This document shows, piece by piece, positions 795 through 63,317 of a stretch of 64,000 nt of DNA (position 1 is its first letter; each line of letters begins with the position of its first letter). A program made the position numbers and the translations under genes. This DNA comes from Escherichia phage PECP20: sequence record OQ873415.1; one strand, 5' to 3'. A model generated the notes under the pieces. The model made no database searches and was not told the origin of the DNA. It saw nothing but the letters and a program-made list of their open reading frames with translations.

Positions 795-820
795 AAAACG
801 AAGAAAGGGGCCGAAGCCCC
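795..820 (-). terminator. rho-independent terminator downstream of hoc
   Basis: GGGGCTTCGGCCCC hairpin (807-820) followed on the minus strand by TTTCTTCGTTTT, 6 nt after the hoc stop. Confidence 0.6.
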
Positions 821-826
821 TTACGA

Positions 827-2970: not shown

Positions 2971-4485
2971 ATGACTGACATTAAAGTACATTTTTATGAT
3001 TTTAGTCACGTTCGCATTGAATGCGACGAAAGTACGTTTTACGAACTTCGTGACTTTTTTAGCTTTGAAGCCGACGGGTATAAATTTAACCCAAAATATC
3101 GCTATGGGCAATGGGATGGTAGAATTCGACTTTTAGATTACAATCGTTTGTTACCATATGGTCTTGTAGGACAAATAAAAAAGTTCTGTAACAATATGAG
3201 TTATTCTATATGGATTGACCCTAAAATCTTTGAGACTGAAGACCTTACCAGGGAAGATTTTGACGCGTGGCTTTCTAAACAAGAAATTTATTCGGGCAAC
3301 GCCAAAATCGAACCACATTGGTATCAAAAAGATGCAGTATATGAAGGACTAGTTAATCGTCGTCGAATTTTAAACCTTCCGACATCAGCAGGTAAATCAC
3401 TAATCCAAGCACTTTTATCTCGGTATTATCTAGAGAACTATGAAGGTAAAATTCTCATTATCGTCCCTACAACAGCATTGACAACCCAGATGGCTAATGA
3501 TTTTGTTGATTATCGCTTGTTTAGTCATTCGATGATTAAGAAAATTGGCGGTGGTGCTGATAAAGCAGACAGAGCTAAAAACGACGCTCCAATTATTGTT
3601 GGCACATGGCAAACGGTAGTTAAGCAGCCTAAAGAATGGTTCTCTCAGTTCGGTATGATGATGAACGATGAATGCCACTTAGCAACAGGCAAAAGTATTT
3701 CTTCAATCATCTCAGGATTAAATAATTGCATGTTTAAATTCGGTTTATCTGGCTCATTAAGAGACGGAAAAGCCAATGTAATGCAGTACGTAGGTATGTT
3801 CGGCGAAATCTTCCGTCCTGTTAGCACGTCTAAATTAATGGAAGACGGACAGGTAACTGAGCTTAAGATTAATAGTATTTTCCTTCGTTATCCAGACGAA
3901 TTCGCCACCAAATTAAAAGGTAAAACATACCAAGAAGAAGTTAAAATTATTACCGGACTAAAACGTCGTACAAAGTGGATTGCTCAACTTTCAGTCAAAT
4001 TAGCCAAGAAAGACGAGAACGCCTTTGTAATGTTTAAACATGTTACACACGGTAAAGAAATATTTGAAGCTATTAAAGAGCTTGGATACGAAAAAGTTTA
4101 TTACGTATCAGGTGAAGTTGATACTGAAACACGTAACGCGCTTAAAGTCATGGCAGAAAATGGTAAAGGCATTATTATTGTCGCATCATATGGAGTATTC
4201 TCTACCGGTATTTCAGTCAAGAATCTTCATCATGTTATTTTTGCCCATGGTGTTAAATCAAAAATTATCGTACTTCAAACAGTAGGTCGTGTGCTTCGTA
4301 AGCATGGTTCTAAAGCTGTTGCTACAGTTTGGGATCTCATCGATGACGCAGGTGTAAAACCTAAATCATTAAATACTAAAAAGAAGTATACTCATCTTAA
4401 TTACTTGTTAAAACACGGTATTGATCGTATCCAGCGTTACGCTGATGAGAAATTTAACTATGTAATGAAAACAATTAATTTATAA
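2971..4485 (+). CDS. uvsW: UvsW DNA/RNA helicase (SF2)
   Basis: 504 aa; N-terminus MTDIKVHFYDFSHVRIECDESTFYELRDFFSF and Walker A NLPTSAGKS, DECH box, strongly T4 UvsW-like. Confidence 0.95.
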   Translation: MTDIKVHFYDFSHVRIECDESTFYELRDFFSFEADGYKFNPKYRYGQWDGRIRLLDYNRLLPYGLVGQIKKFCNNMSYSIWIDPKIFETEDLTREDFDAWLSKQEIYSGNAKIEPHWYQKDAVYEGLVNRRRILNLPTSAGKSLIQALLSRYYLENYEGKILIIVPTTALTTQMANDFVDYRLFSHSMIKKIGGGADKADRAKNDAPIIVGTWQTVVKQPKEWFSQFGMMMNDECHLATGKSISSIISGLNNCMFKFGLSGSLRDGKANVMQYVGMFGEIFRPVSTSKLMEDGQVTELKINSIFLRYPDEFATKLKGKTYQEEVKIITGLKRRTKWIAQLSVKLAKKDENAFVMFKHVTHGKEIFEAIKELGYEKVYYVSGEVDTETRNALKVMAENGKGIIIVASYGVFSTGISVKNLHHVIFAHGVKSKIIVLQTVGRVLRKHGSKAVATVWDLIDDAGVKPKSLNTKKKYTHLNYLLKHGIDRIQRYADEKFNYVMKTINL

Positions 4486-4497
4486 GGGCTTCGGCCC
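4486..4497 (+). other. intercistronic GC hairpin between uvsW and uvsW.1
   Basis: GGGCTTCGGCCC immediately after the uvsW stop and before the uvsW.1 SD; no U-tract, so more likely an RNA stability/processing structure than a terminator. Confidence 0.4.
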
Positions 4498-4510
4498 TTA
4501 GGAGATAAAA

Positions 4511-13044: not shown

Positions 13045-13072
13045 GAAAAAGGGAGACGTTGTCTCCCTTTAG
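13045..13072. terminator. bidirectional terminator between convergent gene 54 and the alt-downstream ORF
   Basis: GGGAGACGTTGTCTCCC hairpin (13051-13067) flanked by A-run upstream and T-run downstream. Confidence 0.6.
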
Positions 13073-13399: not shown

Positions 13400-13429
13400 A
13401 TAGTATCACACATCCATGTGCTTGTAAAC
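13400..13429 (-). promoter_or_regulatory. T4-type early promoter cassette
   Basis: Minus strand GTTTAC (plus 13424-13429), 18 nt, TACTAT (plus 13400-13405), then CAACAACATGAGGAAA RBS block shared with other cassettes. Confidence 0.5.
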
Positions 13430-15550: not shown

Positions 15551-15572
15551 CCAAAAAGAGCCCGAAGGCTCT
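15551..15572 (-). terminator. rho-independent terminator upstream of alt
   Basis: GAGCCTTCGGGCTC hairpin followed by TTTTT on the minus strand. Confidence 0.55.
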
Positions 15573-15760
15573 TAATCCACAATCGGGAGCAAAGTACGAT
15601 AAACTTCAAAATTAGGGCCTTTTTCGTACTTATCAAAATTGTCCATAAAAATATTATAGGAATCGTTATTAGGAAAATCTAATACAATTTGGGAACAAGA
15701 GGTGGAAACATCACCGCCATCTTTATTAGCGACAACTACTGTTTCTAAATAAGCTTTCAT
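15572..15760 (-). CDS. hypothetical protein (62 aa)
   Basis: ATG at 15760 overlapping the ligase stop (TAATG); the track start at 15781 is GTG. Confidence 0.45.
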   Translation of the reverse strand: MKAYLETVVVANKDGGDVSTSCSQIVLDFPNNDSYNIFMDNFDKYEKGPNFEVYRTLLPIVD

Positions 15761-18817: not shown

Positions 18818-19013
18818 TTATAATTTCAACATCAGCCCAATGGCCGTAACTAGGCAGACGGTCTTCAATAGATAAACCACCGTCATTTTTAAGCATTTTA
18901 ATTGTCTTGATAAATGGTTCATCCTGTGGATGAATAGGCGAGCAGTCAGTTACACGATAAGTAACTTCGATCATTTCTGTACCAAACAATTTCTGGATTA
19001 GTTTATTCAACAT
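18801..19013 (-). CDS. hypothetical protein (70 aa)
   Basis: ORF in the 30.x cluster. Confidence 0.45.
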   Translation of the reverse strand: MLNKLIQKLFGTEMIEVTYRVTDCSPIHPQDEPFIKTIKMLKNDGGLSIEDRLPSYGHWADVEIISVKDV

Positions 19014-19200
19014 GTTTCAACCCTTTAATAGGAGATAACTCTTTACCCATACGTATGTCAGAAGTCCCATCAACCCATTGAACAGCATACGCTTCATTGA
19101 TAATTACGGCGGCGGTTTTAAATTCATGGAGAACTTTAAAAATCATCCCAGGGATTCCAACACCTTTTAATTGGACTGTTTGTGCTATTAAAAATTTCAT
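19003..19200 (-). CDS. hypothetical protein (65 aa)
   Basis: ORF directly downstream of an early promoter cassette. Confidence 0.45.
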   Translation of the reverse strand: MKFLIAQTVQLKGVGIPGMIFKVLHEFKTAAVIINEAYAVQWVDGTSDIRMGKELSPIKGLKHVE

Positions 19201-19224
19201 ATTTTTCCACTTGCTAAAGAAATC

Positions 19225-19255
19225 ATTATACTCTAATCCGTCCTTGGATGTAAAC
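19225..19255 (-). promoter_or_regulatory. sigma70-type early promoter
   Basis: Minus strand GTTTACA (plus 19250-19255), 18 nt, TATAAT (plus 19225-19230). Confidence 0.5.
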
Positions 19256-19869
19256 TACTTAACGAAATTAATTTCCACCGGATGAACAACAGGTTGAGCA
19301 GTGATATATTGAGTAATTGCTTTCATGACTAGAGCTTCAGAACCAGGATTTTTCTCAACGAATTCACGTGCTTGGTTATGAGCTTCGAGTTCACTCAATA
19401 ATCCGGAACGTTGGCATCCACGGTCTTGAGTACCCTGTTCAGATAAAAAGACGACGATGTATTTTTCATCGTCATACGGTTTAGACGGTTGAGCAAATGT
19501 TCCTTTACTTCCAAAAGGAGAGTTATGACGCCACATCACGCCGTGAGGAGTTTCAACCTTCGTATATTCGTGCGGGCCATTTTTCTTAATTTCTTGATGT
19601 GGAACTTCATAGACCTTAGGGTTAGGACATTCAATAAAATGCTCATCTAAATCGGTCGAGAATATTAAAGTAAAACAATTACTGAATTTACCAACACCTG
19701 CCTGATAAATTTTACCTTCAGAAGTTCTAATTTCACAAACCGAGCCAGCATCAGTAACTTCTAAAACTTCAAAAGGCTCGATAAGGTCATATGAGAACAT
19801 GTTTTTAAGGCGTGGAGTAATATCCCCATTTTTAAAATTCATTTTATAAAAAGTATTAACTTTAAACAT
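19255..19869 (-). CDS. hypothetical protein (204 aa)
   Basis: ATG at 19869 with SD GAGGAAA; the track start at 19899 lies inside the upstream terminator hairpin. Confidence 0.5.
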   Translation of the reverse strand: MFKVNTFYKMNFKNGDITPRLKNMFSYDLIEPFEVLEVTDAGSVCEIRTSEGKIYQAGVGKFSNCFTLIFSTDLDEHFIECPNPKVYEVPHQEIKKNGPHEYTKVETPHGVMWRHNSPFGSKGTFAQPSKPYDDEKYIVVFLSEQGTQDRGCQRSGLLSELEAHNQAREFVEKNPGSEALVMKAITQYITAQPVVHPVEINFVK

Positions 19870-19881
19870 AATTTCCTCACT

Positions 19882-19897
19882 GGGAGCCGAAGCTCCC
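19882..19897 (-). terminator. GC hairpin with GAAG/CTTC loop between accessory genes
   Basis: GGGAGCTTCGGCTCCC on the minus strand just after the upstream stop; weak U-tract, so possibly a partial terminator. Confidence 0.4.
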
Positions 19898-19904
19898 AAT
19901 TAAT

Positions 19905-20270
19905 TTAGATATCAAATTCATTAAGAACTACATCAAAGATTGCTTCGAGATGTTCAGGTTTAGCTCGGTTACTCAGGATATGACGAATCCAGGTTTTAAC
20001 CAGAAGTTTACGATTAACACCATTCCAGCAAGGATGAGTACCTAAATCGCGCTGACGGAAATCATCATCTAATGCAATTTTAAAATTTGAACCTTCCATC
20101 GTGATTGAAACCGTGATGCCATTTTCAAATCGCATATAAACATAATTAGGAGTCATGCACTGTTCGATTTCACAAACTGTACCGTTTTCGTGTTTCCATA
20201 AGCAAATAACTTCAGAAGAACCAGCGATACCGTTAGAAACATATTTACGTTCGAAGTTGATGTAGTTCAT
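19905..20270 (-). CDS. hypothetical protein (121 aa)
   Basis: ATG at 20270 preceded by SD GGAGAA and an early promoter cassette. Confidence 0.5.
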   Translation of the reverse strand: MNYINFERKYVSNGIAGSSEVICLWKHENGTVCEIEQCMTPNYVYMRFENGITVSITMEGSNFKIALDDDFRQRDLGTHPCWNGVNRKLLVKTWIRHILSNRAKPEHLEAIFDVVLNEFDI

Positions 20271-20300
20271 TTTATTCTCCAGATGTTTAAGTTGTTTGTT

Positions 20301-20340
20301 GGTACAGGTATATAATAACATATCCTGTACCAAAGTAAAC
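20301..20340 (-). promoter_or_regulatory. early promoter embedded in a palindrome
   Basis: Minus strand GTTTAC (plus 20335-20340); inverted repeat GGTACAGG/CCTGTACC (20301-20308 and 20324-20331) flanks the AT-rich -10 region. Confidence 0.45.
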
Positions 20341-20344
20341 TGTT

Positions 20345-20713
20345 TTATGCAACTTTAATCCAATTGTCTAAATTTAAAACACCTTTGGCTTTCATTTTTT
20401 CGATCAGGTTATCTGCTGTAATGCGTCCATTTTGATACCATGTAACATCTTCAGAGTAACCAGTTTCTTCGTCAACATATGTTTCTGAGCGAATTTTACC
20501 GGTAATAATAGTTTTTAATTCGTATGTGTCACCTGTGAAAAAGTTTGCTAACACAATTTTCCAAGAGAAATCATTTGAAGGACCTTCAGGGGTCATACAA
20601 CTTACGAACTCAAATTGCTCTTTGTATAACATCCACTGGAATTCTTTAATTTCGATAGCTTTATAACCGTCGTGTTCTTTACATTTGATGTATGAGTTCA
20701 GATTGATTTTCAT
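20345..20713 (-). CDS. hypothetical protein (122 aa)
   Basis: ORF with its own upstream promoter cassette. Confidence 0.5.
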   Translation of the reverse strand: MKINLNSYIKCKEHDGYKAIEIKEFQWMLYKEQFEFVSCMTPEGPSNDFSWKIVLANFFTGDTYELKTIITGKIRSETYVDEETGYSEDVTWYQNGRITADNLIEKMKAKGVLNLDNWIKVA

Positions 20714-20755: not shown

Positions 20756-20784
20756 ATAGTAACACATCCTACAGGAGAGTAAAC
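20756..20784 (-). promoter_or_regulatory. early promoter
   Basis: Minus strand GTTTAC (plus 20779-20784), 17 nt, TACTAT (plus 20756-20761). Confidence 0.45.
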
Positions 20785-20810: not shown

Positions 20811-20838
20811 ACGCACAAAAGGGAGACCGAAGTCTCCC
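20811..20838 (-). terminator. rho-independent terminator
   Basis: Minus strand GGGAGACTTCGGTCTCCC then TTTTGTGCG; the 24 nt including the hairpin are identical to the gene 32 terminator at 35551-35573. Confidence 0.65.
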
Positions 20839-20843
20839 TAAAA

Positions 20844-21023
20844 TTATGCAACAACCTTTCCAAAACGAGAAGCATCATCTCGAAGAACTGCACGTGCTCT
20901 GCGCATGATCTTCTCAACTGTTTGATTAATACGAGAGTTCGACCCACGCTTGTATCCAGCGCGTTTAGAGGTACCATCAACTTTCTTTTCAACTGCTTTC
21001 TTTGCTTTAGCTTGTTTTGCCAT
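20844..21023 (-). CDS. small highly basic protein (59 aa)
   Basis: Hand-translated minus-strand ORF MAKQAKAKKAVEKKVDGTSKRAGYKRGSNSRINQTVEKIMRRARAVLRDDASRFGKVVA, ending 5 nt before the terminator hairpin; absent from the track because it is under 60 aa. Confidence 0.5.
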   Translation of the reverse strand: MAKQAKAKKAVEKKVDGTSKRAGYKRGSNSRINQTVEKIMRRARAVLRDDASRFGKVVA

Positions 21024-21286
21024 TATAAATTCTCTTTAAATGAAAATGCAGGACTTATTGACATTGCCTGCGCAAGCCCTCATGGGGAACATAGGTTTTG
21101 GATATTTAACGACAGGATAACCATAAACCCGTCATCATACCAACCACGACTTAGACAGATAACCTTTTTCTGACGCGTGATAGTACAAAATACATTCAAG
21201 AGGTACACCGTAAAACTGCCGGGGTCTTAAAACTATAATGATTCGCAAATCATTAATCAGACAATTCGACGGCTCCTCGATTTAAC

Positions 21287-21535
21287 TTACTTCAGGGTAA
21301 TAACAAAATGACGTACTGCTTTACGAGCTGCTGAAGCCAAAGGCTTAGCATATTTCAGTTCATCTTTTGCTTCCAGTTCAGCAGCCAGAGTAGCCTGAGC
21401 AGGATTCAGATGTTTGAAATATCGCAGGATTTCCAGTGCTTCGGCTTCAACATCAATTGAAGCGCCGTAGTTTTCGTGACCGTTATTCCATGCGTTGCGT
21501 TGCAGATCAAGAGCGTGTTGTAGTTGTTTAATCAT
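21287..21535 (-). CDS. rIII: rIII lysis-inhibition accessory protein
   Basis: 82 aa; MIKQLQHALDLQRNAWNNGHENYGASIDVEAEALEILRYFKHLNPAQ, T4 rIII-like. Confidence 0.9.
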   Translation of the reverse strand: MIKQLQHALDLQRNAWNNGHENYGASIDVEAEALEILRYFKHLNPAQATLAAELEAKDELKYAKPLASAARKAVRHFVITLK

Positions 21536-22929: not shown

Positions 22930-23921
22930 TATTGAACCTTATTAATATAAGTTAACAGCTCTTTAGTTTGTTCCCAACTGATGCACGCATCGGTAACGGA
23001 AACGCCATAGGACATATTATCAGAAATTTTTTGATTTCCTTCATGTAGGAACGATTCTATCATAATTCCTTTGACCAAATCATTAGCTGCTAAATTTTTA
23101 CCAATACCAATTTGATTGCTATAATGCCCATCAGCGTTTGCATGGCTACAGTCAACCATTACATAATGATTCAGACCTACTGCCCTTGCTTTGTTAGAAG
23201 CTTCTTGAATATCAGAAGAATGATAGTTCGGACCGTTGGTCCCGCCACGCAATACGATATGCGTATTCTGATTACCTTCAGCTTCAACAATGCCTACAGT
23301 ACCATCGACGTCCATACCCATATACCGATGAGGCCAGGCAGCACTATACATCGCGTCTGTAGCTACTTTAATAGAACCATTGGTTGCGTTCTTGAAGCCT
23401 ACGCACATCGGTAGACCTGAAGCAATTTCACGATGTGTCTGACTTTCAGTCGTACGGGCGCCAATAGCAACCCATGAGAAAATACCAGAAAGATACTTAA
23501 TCGTGAATGGGTCTAATACTTCAGTTGCTAATGGAAGTCCCATACGTAGAAGTTTACGACACAATGTTCGTGCAACTATAAGACCGTGGTTCATATCAAA
23601 ACTTCCGTCAAGATATGGATCATTTACAAGACCTTTCCAACCTACGGTAGTTCGAGGCTTTTCAAAATAAACGCGCATCACTAACAGAACATTAGGAAGA
23701 CGAGTTTGAAGTTCAGCCAGACGTTTGCCGTATTCAACAGCAGCAATAGGGTCATGAATTGAACAAGGACCTACAACAATAAGTTTGCGTGGGTCTTCAC
23801 CGTTCATAATCGAATTAACTTGTTCGCGATGAGAAGCCACTTGTGATGCGTAAGCTTCCGACAAAGGAATAATCTCAGCCAGTTCTTTTGGAGAAATAAG
23901 TTTTCCGACGACAGGTAACAT
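22929..23921 (-). CDS. class-I DAHP synthase (3-deoxy-7-phosphoheptulonate synthase, AroG/F/H family) homologue
   Basis: 330 aa with AroG signature blocks VVGPCSIHD, MRVYFEKPRTTVGWKGL, AIGARTTESQTHRE, CVGFKN, IVLRGG, MVDCSHAN, GIMIESFLHEGNQ; stop overlaps the cd ATG; SD AAGGA. Confidence 0.8.
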   Translation of the reverse strand: MLPVVGKLISPKELAEIIPLSEAYASQVASHREQVNSIMNGEDPRKLIVVGPCSIHDPIAAVEYGKRLAELQTRLPNVLLVMRVYFEKPRTTVGWKGLVNDPYLDGSFDMNHGLIVARTLCRKLLRMGLPLATEVLDPFTIKYLSGIFSWVAIGARTTESQTHREIASGLPMCVGFKNATNGSIKVATDAMYSAAWPHRYMGMDVDGTVGIVEAEGNQNTHIVLRGGTNGPNYHSSDIQEASNKARAVGLNHYVMVDCSHANADGHYSNQIGIGKNLAANDLVKGIMIESFLHEGNQKISDNMSYGVSVTDACISWEQTKELLTYINKVQ

Positions 23922-24278: not shown

Positions 24279-24304
24279 TTCTATTTCCTCATTTTGGTAG
24301 AGTC

Positions 24305-24334
24305 ATCATATCACAACTCTACGGTGTTGTAAAC
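24305..24334 (-). promoter_or_regulatory. early promoter
   Basis: Minus strand GTTTAC (plus 24329-24334), 18 nt, TATGAT. Confidence 0.4.
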
Positions 24335-24610
24335 TTAAATTGCAAAACATTTAATTTCTTGTGAATCGAAATCAACTTCGCACTGAATTACTAGTTCAGC
24401 ATCAAGTCCAAACACAACAATCACATGAGCCGAGCTGGGCAACAGTGTAACGGACACAGAATCCACTTGGTCAGGCACCAGCGTATTCAAAACGTAGAGT
24501 AGTTCAGAGTGGATCTTAAGCTCTGTAGCCGTGTCCAGCTTATCAAAGAAATGATTTGCGATAATCTGACTAAAAACGACCTTTACAATTTCAGAATATT
24601 TAGGGAACAT
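24335..24610 (-). CDS. hypothetical protein (91 aa)
   Basis: ORF in the cd.x-equivalent cluster. Confidence 0.5.
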   Translation of the reverse strand: MFPKYSEIVKVVFSQIIANHFFDKLDTATELKIHSELLYVLNTLVPDQVDSVSVTLLPSSAHVIVVFGLDAELVIQCEVDFDSQEIKCFAI

Positions 24611-26400: not shown

Positions 26401-26428
26401 TTAGATTTCCTCAATTATCCATGGGAGC

Positions 26429-26458
26429 ATTATACTCTGCTCCCGAGAGTTTGTAAAC
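26429..26458 (-). promoter_or_regulatory. early promoter with -10 inside a palindrome
   Basis: Minus strand GTTTAC (plus 26453-26458), 18 nt, TATAAT (plus 26429-26434); inverted repeat GGGAGCA/TGCTCCC (26423-26444); about 40 bp near-identical to the cassette upstream of ndd. Confidence 0.55.
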
Positions 26459-26682
26459 TATTTTACTAAAGATTCAATATACTCATGAAGAGCTTTAGTC
26501 GCAACTGCCCACTTGTTCTGATATTCATTTTTCAGATTAGCACGAGACTGAACTAACAAGCGGTCATTAGTCGGAGGCAAAGATTCTAATCGTTGAATCT
26601 GACGGCCGTAAATCATAGCCGCCATTTCAGAGTCATAGATAAGTCCTTTAAGGTATTCATGCTGTTCTTTAGTCATTGACAT
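26458..26682 (-). CDS. hypothetical protein (74 aa)
   Basis: ORF between the spanin pair and the promoter cassette. Confidence 0.5.
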   Translation of the reverse strand: MSMTKEQHEYLKGLIYDSEMAAMIYGRQIQRLESLPPTNDRLLVQSRANLKNEYQNKWAVATKALHEYIESLVK

Positions 26683-29456: not shown

Positions 29457-29482
29457 AATAAAGTGGGACCGAAGTCCCGTCC

Positions 29483-33315: not shown

Positions 33316-34176
33316 TTATACCGCCATTTTAGCTTTGATAGCTGGATGTGATTCGTAATTTTTAAGAATGAAATCACTCGGATTCATATGCTCTGTTACC
33401 CAATGAAGCTGTAATGTCGTGCTCCAATCAGAGAATCCTTCAGGCCAATCAATTTTAAGTTCACACAGTTCTTTAGGCTCACGACGAAGAACTTCTTTGC
33501 ATTGCTCAACATGGTTGCTGTAGATATGCGTGTTGCCGCCTGAGAACACTAAATCACCTGGGATAAGATTACACATCTTAGCCACAATATGCGTCAAGGC
33601 AGCGTACGAGGCAATGTTGAACGGCAGGCCCAAGAAAACATCTACACTGCGTTGATACCATTGTAAATCAAGATGTCCATTACGCACATTAAATTGATAG
33701 AACATATGACAAGGAGGAAGAGCCATTTGGTCAATTTCGGCAGGGTTCCAGGCAGAAACAATTTGACGACGATCAGTTGGTAATTTTTTAATACGGTCGA
33801 TTGTTTCAACTAATTGGTCCACACCACCGAAATCACGCCATTGTTTACCATATATAGGACCAAGTTCACCACTATGATAACCAAGGTCTTTTGCCTGATT
33901 TTCGTAATTATCGTCCCAAATAGTTTTACCTTCAATTAGACTACCATGAGTACGAAGACGTAATTCATTAACATTAGTAGAACCGGACATGAACCACAGT
34001 AACTCGGCAATACAAGCTTTCCATGCTAATTTCTTAGTTGTTACTGCAGGGAATCCTTTAGTCAGGTCCCAACGTAATTTAGTTCCGAACAGGGCAATTG
34101 TTCCTGTGCCTGTACGGTCGTCTGTTTCGTAGCCATTTTCTAGGATATCATTAATCAGGTATTGGTATTGTTTCAT
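33316..34176 (-). CDS. td: thymidylate synthase (intronless)
   Basis: 286 aa continuous ORF with ThyA core motifs (LPPCHMFYQF, active-site Cys context). Confidence 0.95.
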   Translation of the reverse strand: MKQYQYLINDILENGYETDDRTGTGTIALFGTKLRWDLTKGFPAVTTKKLAWKACIAELLWFMSGSTNVNELRLRTHGSLIEGKTIWDDNYENQAKDLGYHSGELGPIYGKQWRDFGGVDQLVETIDRIKKLPTDRRQIVSAWNPAEIDQMALPPCHMFYQFNVRNGHLDLQWYQRSVDVFLGLPFNIASYAALTHIVAKMCNLIPGDLVFSGGNTHIYSNHVEQCKEVLRREPKELCELKIDWPEGFSDWSTTLQLHWVTEHMNPSDFILKNYESHPAIKAKMAV

Positions 34177-34760
34177 TTATATACGCTCTCAGTAATTTCG
34201 GTGAGTTCATCGATTCTGTAGTAATGAGATTCTACCATAGAACGTTGAAGCATAATATCTTGGATGAAATCTTTATCAAGTTGAACATCGGAATTAACAC
34301 GACATTTCTTAATGATTTTAGTCATCACAATTTCATCGGCATAAGGCAGTGCTTGTTTTAATAAGGCAGGACCGCCGATAACAGATACATCAACATGTTC
34401 AGTAGAAAGTTTAAACGGTACGTCTGTTGAAGGGCTGAACAAGTTAATTTCACTACCAGTCACCAGGGTAATAAATTCTGCTTGGGTGATATAGAACCGT
34501 GCAAGTTCATCAGTTTTAGTCCTAGGCAGTTTTCTGGCCATATCAGTGACAACCACATGAGTACGATCTGGTAGTAGACGAGGTAATGATGCAAAAGTCT
34601 TAGCACCCATAACCAATACAGTGTTTTTAGTGCGAGCAACAAAGTTACTCATATCTTGTTTGATATGCTTCCATGGAAGTCCATCACCTAATCCAAAAGC
34701 ATATTCCAGTTTATCATCAACTGTTTTAGATGGTGCGCATGCGAATACTAATTTAAGCAT
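34173..34760 (-). CDS. frd: dihydrofolate reductase
   Basis: 195 aa; MLKLVFACAPSKTVD...FGLGDGLPW...VMGAKTF, T4 Frd-like; ATGA overlap with td. Confidence 0.93.
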   Translation of the reverse strand: MLKLVFACAPSKTVDDKLEYAFGLGDGLPWKHIKQDMSNFVARTKNTVLVMGAKTFASLPRLLPDRTHVVVTDMARKLPRTKTDELARFYITQAEFITLVTGSEINLFSPSTDVPFKLSTEHVDVSVIGGPALLKQALPYADEIVMTKIIKKCRVNSDVQLDKDFIQDIMLQRSMVESHYYRIDELTEITESVYK

Positions 34761-34762
34761 TT

Positions 34763-35011
34763 TTATTTCCTCAGATTTTTCTTAACAACCTTCCAATCAG
34801 CTTTGAACATTTCAACGTCAGAGTGGCAAATCCAGAATCCTGCACTTTCACCATCTTCATAGAGTGGACATCCATCACATTCTTCGTTCCAACCCATTTC
34901 ACGTAAAGCTTCTTCAGCTTGTTCAAGGAGTTCAGCGTCTTTACCGACGATGTTGAAGTACCATTTACCTCTAACTTCAGAATCTTTGATGCTCTGACGT
35001 TGCAATCTCAT
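34763..35011 (-). CDS. hypothetical protein (82 aa), frd.1 position
   Basis: ATG at 35011 with SD GGAGAA; contains a C-x2-C pair (CDGCPLYEDG); the track ORF start lies inside the promoter. Confidence 0.5.
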   Translation of the reverse strand: MRLQRQSIKDSEVRGKWYFNIVGKDAELLEQAEEALREMGWNEECDGCPLYEDGESAGFWICHSDVEMFKADWKVVKKNLRK

Positions 35012-35073
35012 TTTATTCTCCTTCACTTTTGATTTGATAGGGCTACTATAACATAACCCTATCTGATTGTACA

Positions 35074-35466
35074 CTACTTTTTAAAAGTTTTTTGCAAAAG
35101 TTCGATGATTTCGTCGACGTTGGTTTCATCTACGATACAATGGATTTTTGTTACACCTAAAGTTATACCTTCGTTAGTAGTTTGAGGCTTTACTAAATCT
35201 ACCTCAGTAAAGTATTTGAACTCGTCAGGATAAATCTCAAAATAAGTTCCAATTTCACCACCGGCAGAACATACAGTACCATCTTCCATAGTTACACTTA
35301 CTACGTTTGGCGTATCGCTATCATAATCAGGTTCCATTCCGTTTACAACAAAACTAGGCCCATGGAGTTCAATCAATTTTAACATCTTAGCGTTATTATG
35401 TGGTGCTTCTTGAACAAAGTCGTCTTTAAATAAAGGGTTAATGATATAAGATTTTCCGATTTCCAT
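35074..35466 (-). CDS. hypothetical acidic protein (130 aa), frd.2 position
   Basis: ORF with SD GAGGAAA downstream of an early promoter cassette. Confidence 0.55.
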   Translation of the reverse strand: MEIGKSYIINPLFKDDFVQEAPHNNAKMLKLIELHGPSFVVNGMEPDYDSDTPNVVSVTMEDGTVCSAGGEIGTYFEIYPDEFKYFTEVDLVKPQTTNEGITLGVTKIHCIVDETNVDEIIELLQKTFKK

Positions 35467-35492
35467 TTTGATTTCCTCATGTTGTTGATAGG

Positions 35493-35524
35493 TCTATACT
35501 AACACATCCATGGAAGAAGTAAAC
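35493..35524 (-). promoter_or_regulatory. early promoter cassette
   Basis: Minus strand GTTTAC (plus 35519-35524), about 19 nt, TATAGA, then CAACAACATGAGGAAA block; same cassette family as 13400-13429 and 27835-27864. Confidence 0.4.
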
Positions 35525-35550
35525 AACTTTTTCGGCAATTTACAGATACT

Positions 35551-35573
35551 CAAAAGGGAGACCGAAGTCTCCC
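35551..35573 (-). terminator. rho-independent terminator downstream of gene 32
   Basis: Minus strand GGGAGACTTCGGTCTCCC then TTTTG, 6 nt after the gene 32 stop. Confidence 0.7.
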
Positions 35574-35579
35574 GATTTA

Positions 35580-36482
35580 TTATAGACCAGCTAACAGGTC
35601 ATCGAGGTCGCCATCATCAGAGGATGAGGTAGAGCTCATGAAGTCATCTTCAGTTTTTGCAGAACTAAAGGCTTCCATGTCTTTATCAAAATCGTCAAGG
35701 TCAGAAGCAACTTTATCTGCAACAGAAGCTGCTGCGGCTGCTGCACCACCAAGAGCGGCAGTACCAAGAACCTTAGCGAAAGATTCATTTAATTTTTCAA
35801 AGGATTTGAACTGGTCTTTAGCCGTCAAAGTAGTAAGGTCTACCATCTGGTCATATAGTTCTTTCTGGAATGCTTCGTCATTAATACGAGGAATTTCAGA
35901 TTGACCCAAGAATTTAGATTCGTCGTAGTTGCTAAAACCAGAAACCTGCTTAGCTTTCAGAACGAAGTTAGCACCTTCAAACGGACAAGTAACATCAACT
36001 GGAGTTTCACCCATTTCGGTATCAACTGCAATCATTGCATTGATTTTGTCCCAAATCTTTTTACCGAAACGATATTTAAATACTTTACCTTCGTTATCTG
36101 GAGCTTGAGGGTCTTTAACAACCAGAATATTAGCCCAATAAGAAGTTTTACGTTTCAGTTGAGAATATTCAGTTTTGTTGGTATTGTACAGGTCATTTTT
36201 ACTAATGTACTGACATACAGGACAAGAGTCGTAATCACCATGTGTAGAAGAGCAATTTTCAATATACCATTTACCATTTTTCTTGAAACCGTGGTTAACA
36301 AGAATTGCAAATGGTAGTGCATCATCAGTTTTTGCTGGCAAGAAACGAATTACCGCTTGACCATTACCTGATGCATCTAGCTTCAGCTTCCATTCGCCTT
36401 TATCTTCTGAAGAGAAACCTTTGTTACCGTTCAGTTTAGCCATTTGAGCAGCGAGGTCAGCAGTAGATTTACGTTTAAACAT
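35580..36482 (-). CDS. 32: gp32 single-stranded DNA-binding protein
   Basis: 300 aa; [36 protein letters not shown]... and acidic C-terminal tail [22 protein letters not shown], near-identical to remembered T4 gp32. Confidence 0.97.
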
Positions 36483-36560
36483 TATATTTACCTTTATTTA
36501 AATTATTTAATTTATTTACAGTTGGTTGCTACGACACTTATACCTCGTAGCTGGTATGAT
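36483..36560 (-). promoter_or_regulatory. gene 32 autoregulatory translational operator (hairpin/pseudoknot plus A/U-rich tract)
   Basis: Leader reads CCAGCTACGAGGTATAAGTGTCGTAGCAACC (7-bp stem) followed by AAATAAATTAAATAATTTAAATAAAGG before the ATG, matching the known T4 gene 32 operator organisation. Confidence 0.6.
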
Positions 36561-36562
36561 TT

Positions 36563-36570
36563 ATTTATAA
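36563..36570 (-). promoter_or_regulatory. late promoter (TATAAATA) upstream of gene 32
   Basis: Plus-strand TATTTATA at 36563-36570. Confidence 0.45.
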
Positions 36571-36598
36571 AGTAATTTTAACACACAAGAAATAAAGC

Positions 36599-37252
36599 TT
36601 AATACTTACATGATTTGATTGTTTCTATGAACAATTTCTTAGCAGCATTTCCATCGATTTGAAGTATTTTTCGATATGCCTTTAATTTGGTAGAATAATT
36701 TTGCCAGACTAAATTGTCGGTGAGTTCGTCGTGCTTATCTATAATATTCAAGAATGAATCCAACAACAAGAAGGTTTCAAATGAAATTATATTGCTTTGT
36801 AGCAATTTAAATATGTAGCTCGACTGAACTTTATTATTATAATCAAATATCTCTTGAAGCGCACTAACTTCCACTTTCTTACTGAAATAGTAGATGTTAC
36901 GTACATCTTCAGCAAACGTCTCCTTGGCTTGTTTGAGACGTCCAATATATTCCCTATAGAAAACTAATGCATCAGCGTCTGATATCTCACCAATCCACGC
37001 ATCTTGGTTAGCAACTAAGTTACTGATGAATATCAAGGTGAGTTCCTTTAACTTATATTTCTCTGCTAGTTTCTCAAAGAAATATTTATCTCGGCGTTTT
37101 TGATACGCATTATCCGAAACACGCATGCACCAGTTATATTTGATTACGTCATACCGACCATTAAAATGTTGTTTGCACATCAAGTATAGTTTGTATACCG
37201 ATTTTCCGTTAATATAACGTTCTCCGTCAGGAGGCATGCGTATTTTAATCAT
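36599..37252 (-). CDS. 59: gp59 helicase-loading protein
   Basis: 217 aa; MIKIRMPPDGERYINGKSVYKLYLMCKQHFNGRYDVIKYNWCMRVSD, T4 gp59-like and same length. Confidence 0.95.
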   Translation of the reverse strand: MIKIRMPPDGERYINGKSVYKLYLMCKQHFNGRYDVIKYNWCMRVSDNAYQKRRDKYFFEKLAEKYKLKELTLIFISNLVANQDAWIGEISDADALVFYREYIGRLKQAKETFAEDVRNIYYFSKKVEVSALQEIFDYNNKVQSSYIFKLLQSNIISFETFLLLDSFLNIIDKHDELTDNLVWQNYSTKLKAYRKILQIDGNAAKKLFIETIKSCKY

Positions 37253-37587
37253 AATAAGAAATCTAACGTATTAGTTTTTTCGCCACGAGCAACTGATGGG
37301 CGAAGCATGTTTTCGTCAATTGCTTCGCTTGTAATTTTTTCAACAATTCCTGTAGGAATAAATTTAGCAAATTGTGTTTCTGGAATAGAATTTTCTTCCA
37401 AGAAAGCAGTTGTTGCTTCTAAATAAGACATACCAAATTGTTCAACCATGGATTCGATAATGAATCCGTTTTCTTGGCGGTCAAGCAATTTAGCGATATC
37501 ATCTTTATCGTGTTTTACTGCTAATTCTTGTTCAGATAAACCGGTCTCATCAACCGGTTTAATATCACTTAGTGAAAACTGTGTCAT
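37249..37587 (-). CDS. 33: gp33 late transcription co-activator
   Basis: 112 aa at the T4 gene 33 position; ATGA overlap with gene 59. Confidence 0.85.
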   Translation of the reverse strand: MTQFSLSDIKPVDETGLSEQELAVKHDKDDIAKLLDRQENGFIIESMVEQFGMSYLEATTAFLEENSIPETQFAKFIPTGIVEKITSEAIDENMLRPSVARGEKTNTLDFLL

Positions 37588-37834
37588 AAAGCTCGACTAC
37601 CTCTTCGTTTTCAGCTTCAAATTGGTCACGAGCATCTTTATGATAAAGAGCTAACAAACGATTAAACATTTTTCCATCGACACCAAGCTCTTCTTTAGCA
37701 CGAGTACGAATGTCTTTAATCAGTTCATTATAACCAGAAATTTTAAGTTTGTTATCGGAAGCTTCCTTGACTAGTTTAGCCAGTTCTTCACCATGCACAT
37801 CTTGATTAAATTCAACTGCTTCTTTCTTAGCCAT
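37565..37834 (-). CDS. dsbA: DsbA double-stranded DNA-binding protein
   Basis: 89 aa at the T4 dsbA position, overlapping the gene 33 start. Confidence 0.8.
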   Translation of the reverse strand: MAKKEAVEFNQDVHGEELAKLVKEASDNKLKISGYNELIKDIRTRAKEELGVDGKMFNRLLALYHKDARDQFEAENEEVVELYDTVFTK

Positions 37835-37841
37835 GTTTACC

Positions 37842-38759
37842 TCAGAATTCGTTAATTACACTTGTTAATTTAGAAAGACCCGATTTTACAAAGTATGAAT
37901 AAATCTTGCCTTTAGGTTGTTGTTTATACGAGTTATAATACTCTATAATGGTTGAAGCAATATTATCAGGGATATAATCAAAATCAATGAGAACCAAATT
38001 TTCTTGATACCGTTTATATTCTTCTGCACTTAATAATACTTCAGCTTGAGAACGGTCATTGGCAATTGCTTCAATAATCGTTGTTTTCATGCTTGGAGTT
38101 CGTTCGCCTTCAACTCGAGTAAACCAGAAGTCACCACGAACTCGAACAGACGCAACACCATCTTTACGGTCGCCTTTAAGAATTTTAGTCATGCAATCAA
38201 TTTCAGCAGAACCATTCTTAATTTTAACCCATTTTTTCTGCGGTGGCGACCACTGTTTAACGTTAGGGTACTTGTGTAATTGTGTAAAGTCACCATCTGA
38301 TGCAACAATACACACCTTATGACCAGCTAATGACAAATATTTAGTTAATACACCGATATGGTCATCCGCTTCGTATTTGTCAATATCCATTACAACGTAT
38401 GGCATATATTTCTTAATCTCATCAACAACTTGATGAAGTGCAGTAAAATATCCTTCCCAATCCCACTTTGAAGCTTCACGATCGGTTTTACGATTTTTCT
38501 TATAATAGTAAGCAAAGTCACGACGCCAATATCCAGAAGTAGCGTTATCCATGCACAATACAAATTTTGTATAACCTTGCTTACGGAACATCACTACGTT
38601 TTTACGAATTGAATTCAAGACTACATGGCGAACCATCGGAACAGTAATTTTATCACCGTCTTCAAAGTTGTTTAATGCAGCTGCCAATGCAATGTTACTA
38701 AAGTCGGCAAGTGCAATACCTTCTTTGTAATCTTCATTCAACATCATTTCTAAATCCAT
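37842..38759 (-). CDS. rnh: RNase H (5'-3' exonuclease, FEN-1 family)
   Basis: 305 aa, T4 Rnh length and position; acidic active-site clusters. Confidence 0.9.
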   Translation of the reverse strand: MDLEMMLNEDYKEGIALADFSNIALAAALNNFEDGDKITVPMVRHVVLNSIRKNVVMFRKQGYTKFVLCMDNATSGYWRRDFAYYYKKNRKTDREASKWDWEGYFTALHQVVDEIKKYMPYVVMDIDKYEADDHIGVLTKYLSLAGHKVCIVASDGDFTQLHKYPNVKQWSPPQKKWVKIKNGSAEIDCMTKILKGDRKDGVASVRVRGDFWFTRVEGERTPSMKTTIIEAIANDRSQAEVLLSAEEYKRYQENLVLIDFDYIPDNIASTIIEYYNSYKQQPKGKIYSYFVKSGLSKLTSVINEF

Positions 38760-42721: not shown

Positions 42722-43846
42722 ATGGAAAAATTTATGGCAAGGTTTGGACAGGGATACGTCCAAACGCCGTTTTTATCGGAAAGCAATTCAGTTAGATTTA
42801 AGCTAAGTATAGCGGGTTCATGCCCGCTTTCAACAACTAATCCGTATATTTTGTTCCAAAACGAGCCTTTAGGGTTGCAGTCTTTTGGTATTGGACTAAA
42901 TGTTAGGGTGATAAATCCGGAAAATGGAACTATAGTTGATAGTAAATTATACAATTTTGCGCCTACAAATAATGCAACTTCAGCTGCATTTATTTCGTTT
43001 GTTAATACATACGCGGATAATTTCATTTTCGCATTTATTTCTAATAACAAATTTAATTTGCCACCAGAAATAATTGAATGGTTTAAAGCTGCTGGGAGTT
43101 CAGTTATACCGTCAATTGAAGTTGCTAGTCTTGTTGATATTTCATATTCAGCGTTTTATGTTTCAGGTAAAAATACTATTGCATTAGAACACATAAAATA
43201 CAGTAATAAGAAAACAATTTCTGATTACGCAACCCCATTAGATATTGTATATGACTCTATTGCTGATATAGGTGCTACCGGCTATCCTAGACGTACATAT
43301 GAAGCTTTAGAAACGTTTTTATCTCCTGTTGGAGGAACTAACAATGAAATAAAAAGGATGCCTACGTCATCCCTTGTTACTCCTATCGCAAACTATGGAT
43401 TAAAGCCTGCAGATTTTCTTTATTTGAAATTTCAATTAATGGCTGATGAAGAATTATTAGAGGAAGGAACCACAAGACTTTCAATTCGTTTCTTTAAGTC
43501 TCCATCTAGCTCTCCTATATCATCTAAAGATATAAACTTTGATGGAACTGCCGGGGAGTGGAAGTTATATGAAGAATACGTTGAAATACCAGCTGAAGCT
43601 GATGGCTTTACAGTATATTGTTACCGTACGGCCTCAGTCGGTCAAGGTGGACTAAGAAATGTTATTTTCACTGAAGTATCATGTAACGGAAGTATAGCAA
43701 AACCCGCCGAGTTTGGCCTAAACGGTATTCGTGCTAATTACATCGATGAATCATTAATCGGTAATGATATAATGGACTTGCCTACCCAGTTATCTAACGA
43801 CACAGGTAAGGTATTTGGGCAGGAATTTAAAGAGTACACAGAATAA
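42722..43846 (+). CDS. 35: gp35 long tail fibre hinge
   Basis: 374 aa directly after gene 34. Confidence 0.88.
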   Translation: MEKFMARFGQGYVQTPFLSESNSVRFKLSIAGSCPLSTTNPYILFQNEPLGLQSFGIGLNVRVINPENGTIVDSKLYNFAPTNNATSAAFISFVNTYADNFIFAFISNNKFNLPPEIIEWFKAAGSSVIPSIEVASLVDISYSAFYVSGKNTIALEHIKYSNKKTISDYATPLDIVYDSIADIGATGYPRRTYEALETFLSPVGGTNNEIKRMPTSSLVTPIANYGLKPADFLYLKFQLMADEELLEEGTTRLSIRFFKSPSSSPISSKDINFDGTAGEWKLYEEYVEIPAEADGFTVYCYRTASVGQGGLRNVIFTEVSCNGSIAKPAEFGLNGIRANYIDESLIGNDIMDLPTQLSNDTGKVFGQEFKEYTE

Positions 43847-43868
43847 AGGAGACTTCGGTCTCCTTTTC
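43847..43868 (+). terminator. rho-independent terminator after gene 35
   Basis: GGAGACTTCGGTCTCC followed by TTTTCGCG. Confidence 0.6.
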
Positions 43869-47822: not shown

Positions 47823-47827
47823 TAAAA

Positions 47828-47841
47828 GGGCCTTCGGGCCC
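47828..47841 (+). other. GC hairpin between genes 37 and 38
   Basis: GGGCCTTCGGGCCC directly after the gene 37 stop and before the gene 38 SD GGAGG; no U-tract. Confidence 0.4.
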
Positions 47842-47852
47842 TGGAGGTTTAT

Positions 47853-52104: not shown

Positions 52105-52140
52105 TTTATTTCTCCAAATTAGTATTTGTTTGATAGGTCT

Positions 52141-52169
52141 ATAATATCATGTTTGAAGCAAAAGTAAAC
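52141..52169 (-). promoter_or_regulatory. early promoter cassette for motA (copy 1 of a tandem pair)
   Basis: Minus strand GTTTAC (plus 52164-52169), 17 nt, TATTAT (plus 52141-52146). Confidence 0.55.
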
Positions 52170-52206
52170 TTTATTTTGGGCTCTTTTTCAAAAGCCCTGG
52201 TAAAAT

Positions 52207-52422
52207 TTACAAACTCATTTCTTTAATAAGGCTAATAAGTTTTGCCTTTTTAGAACGAAGCTTTTCTAAATGATGTCCATTTGAACCGCGAACCACTAAA
52301 GAATTGATTTCAACTTCTAAGAAATTTAATTCTTCAACAAGTGCTTTACGGAGAGCATTCATACCAGGTTTAACTTTACCGAAACGAGTAGTTGTGTTTT
52401 GGGTTAATTTCATTTTAGACAT
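52207..52422 (-). CDS. hypothetical basic protein (71 aa)
   Basis: ORF flanked by the two near-identical promoter cassettes; its start context GACATTTTATTTCTCCAA is duplicated from motA. Confidence 0.5.
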   Translation of the reverse strand: MSKMKLTQNTTTRFGKVKPGMNALRKALVEELNFLEVEINSLVVRGSNGHHLEKLRSKKAKLISLIKEMSL

Positions 52423-52461
52423 TTTATTTCTCCAATTTGGTTGTTTTGTTTTGATAGGTCT

Positions 52462-52490
52462 ATAATATCATGTTTGAAGCACATGTAAAC
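52462..52490 (-). promoter_or_regulatory. early promoter cassette (copy 2 of the tandem pair)
   Basis: Near-identical repeat of 52131-52169 (TGATAGGTCTATAATATCATGTTTGAAGCA...GTAAAC). Confidence 0.55.
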
Positions 52491-52510
52491 TGTTTTGTGA
52501 GAAAAAAATG

Positions 52511-52533
52511 CACAAAAGGGAGCTTCGGCTCCC
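52511..52533 (-). terminator. rho-independent terminator downstream of gene 52
   Basis: Minus strand GGGAGCCGAAGCTCCC then TTTTGTGCATTTTTTT. Confidence 0.6.
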
Positions 52534-52609
52534 TAATCATGTTTGTCCAACCAATACAGCCAAATCACTAGTGCAGCTATTGCACCGAGAAATCCTAAGG
52601 CTAGGGCAC

Positions 52610-53939: not shown

Positions 53940-54080
53940 TCACCATATTAATGAACGAATAACCATTATAACATCTGAAATGAAAAGCACTACTTGGATT
54001 AGTCCAAACATCACACCGTAGTACAGAATCGTAAACAACAACAAGAGCCCGAAGGCTCCTGCTAAGATTTTCTTAATCAT
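53940..54080 (-). CDS. small hydrophobic membrane protein (46 aa)
   Basis: Hand-translated MIKKILAGAFGLLLLFTILYYGVMFGLIQVVLFISDVIMVIRSLIW; start overlaps the upstream stop (TAATG); ac-like position. Confidence 0.4.
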   Translation of the reverse strand: MIKKILAGAFGLLLLFTILYYGVMFGLIQVVLFISDVIMVIRSLIW

Positions 54081-55023: not shown

Positions 55024-55061
55024 GTAGGACTACTATACCATAATCCTACTGTGTTGTAAAC
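55024..55061 (-). promoter_or_regulatory. early promoter with palindrome
   Basis: Minus strand GTTTAC (plus 55056-55061); inverted repeat GTAGGA/TCCTAC (55024-55049) around the -10. Confidence 0.4.
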
Positions 55062-55534: not shown

Positions 55535-55572
55535 ATAGGACTACTGTATCATAGTCCTACTTAGTTGTAAAC
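55535..55572 (-). promoter_or_regulatory. early promoter with palindrome
   Basis: Minus strand GTTTAC (plus 55567-55572); inverted repeat TAGGACT/AGTCCTA (55535-55558). Confidence 0.4.
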
Positions 55573-56382: not shown

Positions 56383-56398
56383 AAAGGGGACCGAAGTC
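56383..56398 (-). terminator. hairpin terminator downstream of rIIB
   Basis: Minus strand GGGGACTTCGGTCCCC then TTTTTTC. Confidence 0.55.
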
Positions 56399-56406
56399 CC
56401 CAATTA

Positions 56407-62831: not shown

Positions 62832-62894
62832 GTTGTCTCCTCGTTATGAAGGTATTCTATCATCCGAAATCTAAAGCAAAAAGGGCCGAAGCCC

Positions 62895-63317
62895 TTATTT
62901 AAATTTAATTTTCTGAAGTGCATCAATTGCAGCCAAACGCCCTTGTTCACTTTTAACCGTAATGACCACATCACCTGATACGATCACTGAACCATCAACA
63001 AATTCTATAGAGCCTTTTTTGAAATCGACAGCTGTATCTGATTCCGGAACTTCTTCAAAGAATTTAAATTCTGCACCATAAATCAGAATATCACCTTGCA
63101 TACTAATGATTGTACGTCCAGGTCCATCGGTTTCAGCGGCAATCATTGAAACACCGTAGCCAATCATCTCTTCTACAATAAAATCTCTTGATAATAAAAC
63201 TGTATGCAGAGTAGTGTTAAGACGTTTACCAGTTGTATTAAGAATTCTCAAGAAATTATCTTCTTGACCTTTGATAATACGATATTTCTTACCAACTTCA
63301 AAACCTTTAAAAGCCAT
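62895..63317 (-). CDS. hypothetical protein (140 aa), goF/39.x position
   Basis: ORF at the position of T4 goF; identity to goF not verified. Confidence 0.5.
   Translation of the reverse strand: MAFKGFEVGKKYRIIKGQEDNFLRILNTTGKRLNTTLHTVLLSRDFIVEEMIGYGVSMIAAETDGPGRTIISMQGDILIYGAEFKFFEEVPESDTAVDFKKGSIEFVDGSVIVSGDVVITVKSEQGRLAAIDALQKIKFK

Follow-up and report, generated by a model that had tools for sequence, protein, structure and literature searches.

A UUCG hairpin repeated after genes 32 and 30.9 of an RB69-type phage: very probably a Rho-independent terminator in PeSL-type cassettes

The DNA analyzed, here called the window, is 64,000 nucleotides (nts) of Escherichia phage PECP20 (OQ873415.1). 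Its genes run in the order hoc, uvsW, baseplate genes, alt, gene 30, 30.1 to 30.9, rIII, 31, cd, pseT, rnlA, nrdAB, td, frd, 32, 59, 33, rnh, 34 to 38, t, asiA, motA, 52, rIIB, rIIA, and 39, which is also the order in the annotated relatives ESh27, APCEc01, phiC120, p000v, PhAPEC2, and T4. The early genes are mostly on the minus strand. From 34000 to 38000 the sequence is 97 to 99% identical to that of many Escherichia and Shigella phages filed as Mosigvirus (RB69-type) or Tequatrovirus. The window is a segment of the genome of a T4-like, RB69-type (Mosigvirus) phage.

A search of the window for the string CAAAAGGGAGACCGAAGTCTCCC gave exact matches at 20816 to 20838 and at 35551 to 35573; no match turned up when the window was shuffled with its dinucleotides preserved. 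A preliminary description of this DNA had reported a 24-nt identity beginning at 20815. The identity between the two loci is exact, but it is 23 nt long and its first copy starts at 20816. The bases bordering the two copies differ (A/T upstream, T/G downstream). As had been described, the first copy comes after a small basic open reading frame (ORF), a gp30.9 homologue at 20844 to 21023 on the minus strand (59 aa, pI 11.4), and the second lies just past gene 32 (35580 to 36482, minus strand). Read on the minus strand, which is the sense strand for the adjoining genes, the 23-mer is GGGAGAC-UUCG-GUCUCCC-UUUUG.

The gene 32 hairpin (35551 to 35573, minus strand) consists of GGGAGAC-UUCG-GUCUCCC plus UUUUG and begins 6 nt past the gene 32 stop codon. 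Its predicted RNA fold is −13.4 kcal/mol, and PhAPEC2 has a 100% match to the 64-mer around it, with a terminator annotation. The 30.9 hairpin (20816 to 20839, minus strand) reads AGGGAGAC-UUCG-GUCUCCCU followed by UUUG; it folds in context at −20.3 kcal/mol (z = −3.8), and its orthologue in PhAPEC2 is an annotated terminator as well. The stems at the two sites have 7 to 8 bp, with 5 G-C pairs, and start 4 to 6 nt past the stop codons of genes 32 and 30.9. The U-tracts, UUUUG at both copies with 4 to 5 T's among the first 8 nt, are short, so termination may be partial.

Similar hairpins occur throughout the window. Defined as C-TTCG-G with a stem of at least 5 bp and at least 4 G-C pairs, they number 13; 200 dinucleotide shuffles averaged 0.01, none exceeding 1. 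The shuffle counts (no match to the 23-mer; 0.01 hairpins expected versus 13) ruled out chance as the origin of the repeat. TTCG or CGAA is the loop in 26 of the 38 strong C-N4-G hairpins, both strands being counted. All 13 UUCG hairpins are intergenic or overlap just a stop codon or a doubtful small ORF, all have stems of the form RGGG(R)(N)C-UUCG, and their predicted RNA stabilities range from −9 to −16.5 kcal/mol. UUCG is on the sense strand, i.e., the strand of the flanking genes, in 12 of the 13 (binomial p = 0.0017); the exception, at 52517, has CGAA. It is in RNA that C(UUCG)G is known to be especially stable (PMC4371310), so this strand bias points to selection at the RNA level.

The 5′ arms of these hairpins (805 to 62896) are all purine-rich, RGGGRNC. 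Seven of the arms contain GGAG, which is both the core of the Shine-Dalgarno sequence and the motif of the T4 RegB endoribonuclease.

A U-rich tail follows nine of the 13 hairpins, and to judge from their sequences these nine look like intrinsic terminators. In addition to the two focal copies and the gene 52 hairpin described below, they are the hairpins after hoc (805 to 822, minus strand), which has the same sequence as its T4 orthologue; after alt.1 (15556 to 15573, minus strand); after gene 35 (43845 to 43866, plus strand), with the stem AAAGGAGAC and then a late promoter, TATAAATA; after rIIB (56386 to 56401, minus strand), followed by UUUUUUCUUU; upstream of gene 39 (62881 to 62896, minus strand); and at 54039 to 54064 (minus strand), where an 11-bp stem-loop is followed by UUGUUGUUU and the last bases run into a GTTTAC hexamer. 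The remaining four have no contiguous U-tract directly 3′ of the stem and end 0 to 10 nt ahead of the Shine-Dalgarno sequence or start codon of the next gene. The one at uvsW (4483 to 4500, plus strand) overlaps the uvsW stop codon and abuts the uvsW.1 Shine-Dalgarno sequence; that at 19879 to 19900 (minus strand) follows the 30.7 homologue (19905 to 20321) and abuts the Shine-Dalgarno sequence of the ORF at 19255 to 19869; the others lie between nrdB and denA (29465 to 29478, minus strand) and between genes 37 and 38 (47827 to 47842, plus strand), the latter again abutting a Shine-Dalgarno sequence. These four are probably intercistronic RNA stabilizers or insulators rather than terminators. 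The eight hairpins that had been listed besides the repeat and its variants are all real (805 to 822, 4483 to 4500, 15556 to 15573, 19879 to 19900, 43845 to 43866, 47827 to 47842, 54039 to 54064, and 56386 to 56401), but the list had overlooked those at 29465 to 29478 and 62881 to 62896.

Two further sites, at 13045 to 13067 and 52511 to 52533, had been described as close variants of the repeat with the same flank. The second of these is the gene 52 terminator (52517 to 52534, minus strand), AGGGAGC-CGAA-GCUCCCU followed by UUUGUGCAUUUUUUU. The flank, CACAAAAGGGAG, is indeed present there, at 52511 to 52522, but the stem is AGGGAGC and the loop on the transcribed strand is CGAA instead of the UUCG found in most relatives. 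At the first, the reverse holds: the stem is that of the focal copies (GGGAGAC/GTCTCCC), but the flank is GAAAAAGGGAG and the loop GTT(G), so the claim of a common flank fails. This hairpin, AAAGGGAGAC-GUU-GUCUCCCUUU at 13048 to 13070, lies between the convergent genes gp54 (plus strand) and alt.-3 (minus strand) as a bidirectional terminator, and PhAPEC2 carries a terminator annotation on both strands at this site. We considered the CACAAAAGGGAG flank as a sign of shared ancestry and rejected it: past the stem and U-tract it adds GTG only. At two sites the flank pairs with upstream bases, lengthening the helix.

Downstream of each focal hairpin, at a distance of 25 to 35 nt, is a strong early promoter of the form GTTTAC-N17-TA(C/G)TAT, followed by a Shine-Dalgarno sequence and the next ATG. 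The sigma-70-type promoter at the gene 32 site (35496 to 35524, minus strand; GTTTAC-N17-TAGTAT), 31 nt past the hairpin, drives frd.2 (35074 to 35466); the one at the 30.9 site (20756 to 20784, minus strand; GTTTAC(T)-N17-TACTAT) drives 30.8 (20345 to 20713). The gene 52 site has GTTTAC(A)-N17-TATTAT at 52462 to 52490 (minus strand), inside a 57-nt direct repeat (52443 to 52499). A second copy of this promoter region, at 52122 to 52197 (minus strand), holds a promoter at 52141 to 52169 and a GAAA-loop hairpin at 52178 to 52197. The cassettes at the 30.9, 32, and 52 sites have AAAAAG(N)T ahead of GTTTAC and end in GGAG or GAGG plus ATG. Intergenic minus-strand DNA of the window contains 13 early promoters of the GTTTAC-N17-TAnTAT type; the analysis thus annotates the window with 15 regulatory hairpins and 13 early promoters.

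The focal hairpin together with its promoter is the published PeSL, an insulated terminator-promoter cassette. In a PeSL (promoter-early stem-loop), a stem-loop terminator immediately precedes a sigma-70-like early promoter, and the cassette ends in a Shine-Dalgarno sequence and start codon; the promoter consensus for T4/PST is TTTACW-N17-TAYWAT (PMC4122927), from which the gene 32-site promoter, GTTTACT-N17-TAGTAT, departs by one mismatch, in the −10 element. In phage RB49, PeSL stem-loops terminate transcription in reporter assays, and recombination between cassettes gave deletions and mini-circles, one mini-circle crossover being mapped within the stem-loop (PMC2839356).

The hairpins are conserved in position and structure. 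Seven of those in the window (after hoc, gp54/alt.-3, alt.1, 30.9, nrdB/denA, 32, and 35) have PhAPEC2 orthologues annotated as ARNold terminators. A hairpin within a few bases of the gene 32 stop codon, followed by a T-tract, was found at 28 of 29 T4-like loci identified through gp32. Its stem varies (AGAAGGAGCC, GGGGACC, GGGAGAC, AAGGGGACC, AAAGGCUACUC, AAGGACUC, and others), and its loop is mainly UUCG, otherwise CUAGA, CUAGU, UCCG, UACG, or UUUG. Likewise, a hairpin follows the 30.9 homologue at 24 of 24 related loci, with differing stem sequences. Among 17 distinct gene 32 terminators, both-sided (compensatory) changes occur at 7 of the 8 stem pairs, and 96% of cells are paired, a percentage inflated by our having picked the best hairpin downstream of each stop codon; 0 of 500 shuffles reached this level, and slid controls were 43 to 63% paired. 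Thus the position of the hairpin is old and its sequence free to vary, which argues for selection on structure. At gathering thresholds, an Rfam scan of the whole window matched no family.

The T4 gene 32 terminator region (locus L131, 6912 to 6992) is also found in three conjugative plasmid records, twice in each, with 98.6% identity over 74 nt. These occurrences are consistent with use as a portable terminator, as in engineered omega-type interposon cassettes. Our searches of the literature on T4 3′-end mapping, phage hairpin loop inversion, and the omega interposon yielded nothing usable.

From the sequence, structure, position, strand bias, conservation with covariation, and cassette architecture that we observed, it is very probable that the 23-mer is a Rho-independent terminator and 3′-end-stabilizing RNA hairpin of a T4-like (RB69-type, Mosigvirus) phage, set in PeSL-type cassettes. 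Termination and RNA protection are what these features predict in vivo. The hairpin would form in the nascent RNA behind RNA polymerase as the enzyme stands at the U-tract, the transcript would be let go, and the same hairpin would afterwards stop 3′-exonucleases; one copy would in this way end the gene 32 transcript and the other the gene 30.9 transcript. The earlier proposal that these hairpins are terminators or RNase-protection structures is borne out by their location just past stop codons on the sense strand, their G+C-rich stems and, mostly, U-tracts, their conserved positions, the compensatory changes, and the annotation in PhAPEC2. The repeat is a known type of element (T4-type UUCG hairpins, PeSL cassettes) in a known type of phage. 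It is real but not new, and as the main finding it carries little weight: a textbook feature has been met again.

The hairpins had also been proposed as recombination hotspots, with synteny breakpoints between related phages expected at them. Megablast comparison of the window with five close relatives revealed about seven distinct events. Within hoc, a domain indel at 1102 to 2114 fits a variable number of domains; APCEc01, p000v, and PhAPEC2 lack this segment or have another in its place. A replacement affects the two ORFs that come after the 30.7 homologue (19003 to 19200 and 19255 to 19869), at 19017 to 19863 or at 19184 to 19905, and its right end (19863 or 19905) is 5 to 16 nt from the hairpin at 19879 to 19900. 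A small replacement lies in the 30.9-rIII spacer (21141 to 21287), and the tail fiber genes are mosaic. Many relatives have a second, tandem frd.1-like ORF of 249 bp at 34763 that is absent from the window; it accounts for the ∼240-bp length gap of the gene 32 region versus most relatives, which we had considered as a candidate and rejected since this ORF does not adjoin the hairpin. Between the gene 32 cassette and frd.2, phiC120 and T4 have a frd.3-like ORF that the window lacks, and the junction is in repeated 5′-untranslated-region (5′UTR)/Shine-Dalgarno sequence at 35464 to 35489 (versus positions 36757 to 37045 of locus L230). Lastly, the ORF at 52207 to 52422 (71 aa, between gene 52 and motA) is absent from ESh27. 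In the window it is bracketed by the 57-nt direct promoter-region repeats (52122 to 52178 and 52443 to 52499, 86% identical), of which ESh27 retains a single copy, as expected for an insertion or deletion of the textbook PeSL type. Another indel endpoint, at 47852, is likewise within 5 to 16 nt of a hairpin.

Cassettes are therefore involved in three of the approximately seven events (the frd.3-like ORF, the ORF at 52207 to 52422, and the replacement ending at 19863 or 19905), but in two of these three the crossover maps to the promoter/5′UTR repeat and not to the hairpin. The pattern fits the PeSL model, but about seven events are too few to tell it from a general intergenic bias. In general the hotspot proposal agrees both with the published PeSL work (PMC2839356, PMC4122927) and with the three indels that end in or beside cassettes; it is reasonable and in substance already in print, but the basis given for it is weak.

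The loops of the hairpins differ between relatives in an unusual way. In five window hairpins the loop is the exact reverse complement of that in near-identical phages, with the stem and ∼45 nt of flanks (100 nt where aligned) unchanged. The loop at 13048 to 13070 is GTT in the window and in phiC120 and AAC in p000v. UUCG in the window is replaced by CGAA at 19879 to 19900 in APCEc01, at 43845 to 43866 in phiC120, and at 20820 to 20839 in JM10, and the CGAA at 52517 to 52534, identical in RB69, is replaced by UUCG in APCEc01, SF, and UKE1. Inversion frequencies over the phage collection were estimated from identity bands, with alignment checks for JM10, SF, and UKE1 only. On this basis the inverted loop occurs in 0 of 151 records at the gene 32 site, ∼3 of 150 at the 30.9 site, and 2 of 44 at the gene 35 site; the window's CGAA orientation at the gene 52 site is apparently shared by ∼30 of 118 records. 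In other lineages, the GNRA loops of the gp54/alt.-3 terminator (GAAA, GUGA, GCAA) flip between close relatives. Loops are reverse-complemented in the locus pairs L220/L221, L238/L239, L244/L245, and L246/L247. Overall, the flipped pairs are UUCG/CGAA, GUU/AAC, GAAA/UUUC, GUGA/UCAC, and GCAA/UUGC.

Point mutation could not produce the reverse complement of four bases, so strand switching or a cruciform-type inversion at a perfect palindrome is the likely cause. Given such flips, the sense-strand bias implies that UUCG is selected in RNA. T-even terminator hairpins may then be dynamic palindromes whose loops flip frequently and precisely, with selection in RNA restoring or keeping UUCG at critical sites, and whose stems are homogenized within genomes, a combined picture to which we would assign somewhat less than an even chance. 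If stems are homogenized, a "house" terminator would characterize each lineage, with GGGAGAC for the RB69-type phages and GGGGACC for T4. In the literature that we searched, neither loop inversion nor stem homogenization was reported for phage terminators, a weak sign of novelty. Only these inversions and the possible house stems may be new. The loop polymorphisms amount to a natural experiment on the share of the UUCG orientation in termination or mRNA stability in vivo, and from them one could gauge how often palindromes switch strands in a phage that recombines very actively.

In roughly half of the early promoters, the −10 hexamer sits inside a perfect inverted repeat of 5 to 8 bp, e.g., GGGAGCA-gagtataa-TGCTCCC. 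Such repeats are at 55543 to 55572, 55032 to 55061, 26429 to 26458, 24305 to 24334, 13400 to 13429, and 20312 to 20340, all on the minus strand, and in T4 (locus L236) at 23294 to 23321. Transcription probably starts downstream of the 5′ arm, so that this hairpin cannot form in RNA made from the same promoter. Exactly within one such promoter loop (Pe133295), the T4 RefSeq entry carries the remark "inverted complement of previously reported sequence." Loop flipping was looked for across relatives at two of these promoters and rejected: at 26412 to 26475, all but 1 of 149 records have at least 95% identity, and at 24288 to 24351 no identity band fits an inverted loop.

How the two focal sites came to have the same hairpin is a separate question. 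The preliminary description took identity beyond the stem as a sign of copying by recombination rather than convergence, an argument that does not hold. What is shared past the stem is TTTTG alone, the U-tract of the terminator; the match ends with that G on one side and with the 5′ edge of the stem on the other. A scan of viral contigs in IMG/VR for the 18-nt hairpin found it exactly at no fewer than 122 places, in at least 95 distinct upstream contexts; among the matches listed, a T-tract (at least 6 T's in 10 nt) follows 86%, and just 3 of 120 loci have other homology with the window. With the 18-mer in so many unrelated contexts, an independent origin is plainly possible and the argument for copying is weak. 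The focal identity spans only the functional element and reflects either selection from a small repertoire of stems with a purine-rich 5′ arm and a UUCG loop or short-patch copying. Under the former explanation, selection for a very stable, short terminator draws on that small set of stems, and two sites happen to coincide. We hold this to be slightly less likely than not. The IMG/VR matches favor it, as do the common form of the 13 window stems and the fact that orthologous sites retain structure and not sequence, but the sharing of one stem, by four sites in the window and three in T4, exceeds what simple independent draws would give, although the evidence for this excess is marginal.

That sharing is the starting point for the copying explanation, in which the identical stems, really four GGGAGAC sites in the window, were homogenized by short-patch ectopic gene conversion or template switching (concerted evolution). 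The window has (G)GGAGAC at the sites after gp54, 30.9, 32, and 35, whereas T4 has (G)GGGACC after gp54, 32, and 35 and GAGGACUCC at the 30.9 site; the probability that the T4 three-site family would fall by chance inside the window's four-site family, given nine shared sites, is 0.048. Distant phages (∼65% gp32 identity) have GGGAGAC at the gene 32 site but other stems elsewhere (AAGGGAGCC or AAGGGAGAGC at gp54, AGGGACUCC at 30.9), and in a second distant lineage, contig 2974666281, one hairpin, ATGGGAGAC-UUCG-GUCUCCCAU, is shared by the 30.9 and gene 32 sites. Sequence sharing of this kind across nonhomologous sites suggests homogenization within genomes; in addition, the exact loop flips show that strand switching occurs in these palindromes at the DNA level, and the PeSL mini-circle crossover lay inside a stem-loop (PMC2839356). 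On the other side, the identity halts exactly at the functional element, the homology on offer is merely ∼18 to 23 nt, the 18-mer occurs in those at least 95 unrelated contexts, and the 30.9 and gene 32 stems are unlike in most genomes examined. Moreover, a repertoire of about a dozen stems would yield one or two within-genome matches among 14 genomes by chance, and a lineage-specific selective optimum predicts an equal pattern. A scan of gp35 relatives for a fourth site of concerted evolution gave only one locus. All told, homogenization is a credible explanation, but somewhat less likely than not and slightly less likely than convergence.

It is very improbable that the hairpins are chiefly DNA-level signals (recombination hotspots, cruciforms, or protein-binding sites) whose terminator activity is incidental. 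The loops do flip in DNA, some indel endpoints (19863/19905 and 47852) are 5 to 16 nt from a hairpin, and Arbiol et al. speculated about a protein targeting GGGG...CCCC stems (PMC2839356). Against this reading stand the bias of UUCG toward the sense strand, the orientation of the gene 32 loop, inverted in none of 151 records, and the location of the hairpins immediately 3′ of stop codons and with U-tracts; moreover, two of the three cassette indels crossed over in promoter/5′UTR repeats outside the hairpin.

Small inversions of hairpin loops are familiar from chloroplast noncoding DNA. As there, the loops described here are reverse-complemented between perfect inverted-repeat arms, recurrently and in close relatives; unlike there, the hairpins are phage terminators, and selection at the RNA level seemingly favors the UUCG orientation. 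With the intrinsic terminators of E. coli and its phages, the focal hairpins share a G+C-rich stem, a short loop, a 3′ U-tract, and ARNold predictions on identical or orthologous sequence, but their U-tract has just four U's, and the loops across the window are nearly all UUCG. The C(UUCG)G tetraloop was first found in T4 mRNAs (Tuerk et al. 1988, recounted in PMC4371310), and the window hairpins resemble those of T4 in loop, C-G closing pair, intercistronic position on the sense strand, and phage group. T4 has hairpins at nine orthologous positions, five of them with a UUCG loop; the stems, however, differ at eight of the nine shared sites, and the loop of the terminator after T4 gene 32 is CUAGA, with a longer U-tract behind the stem. 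With the PeSLs (Arbiol et al. 2010, PMC2839356; Comeau et al. 2014, PMC4122927) the window shares the hairpin-promoter-Shine-Dalgarno-ATG layout, the intergenic repeats, and indels that end in cassettes. It differs in that several of its hairpins, in late-gene regions, have no promoter beside them, and in that PeSLs were published for RB49/phi1, T4/PST, and KVP40/nt-1 and not for RB69-type phages, to which the PeSL picture now extends.
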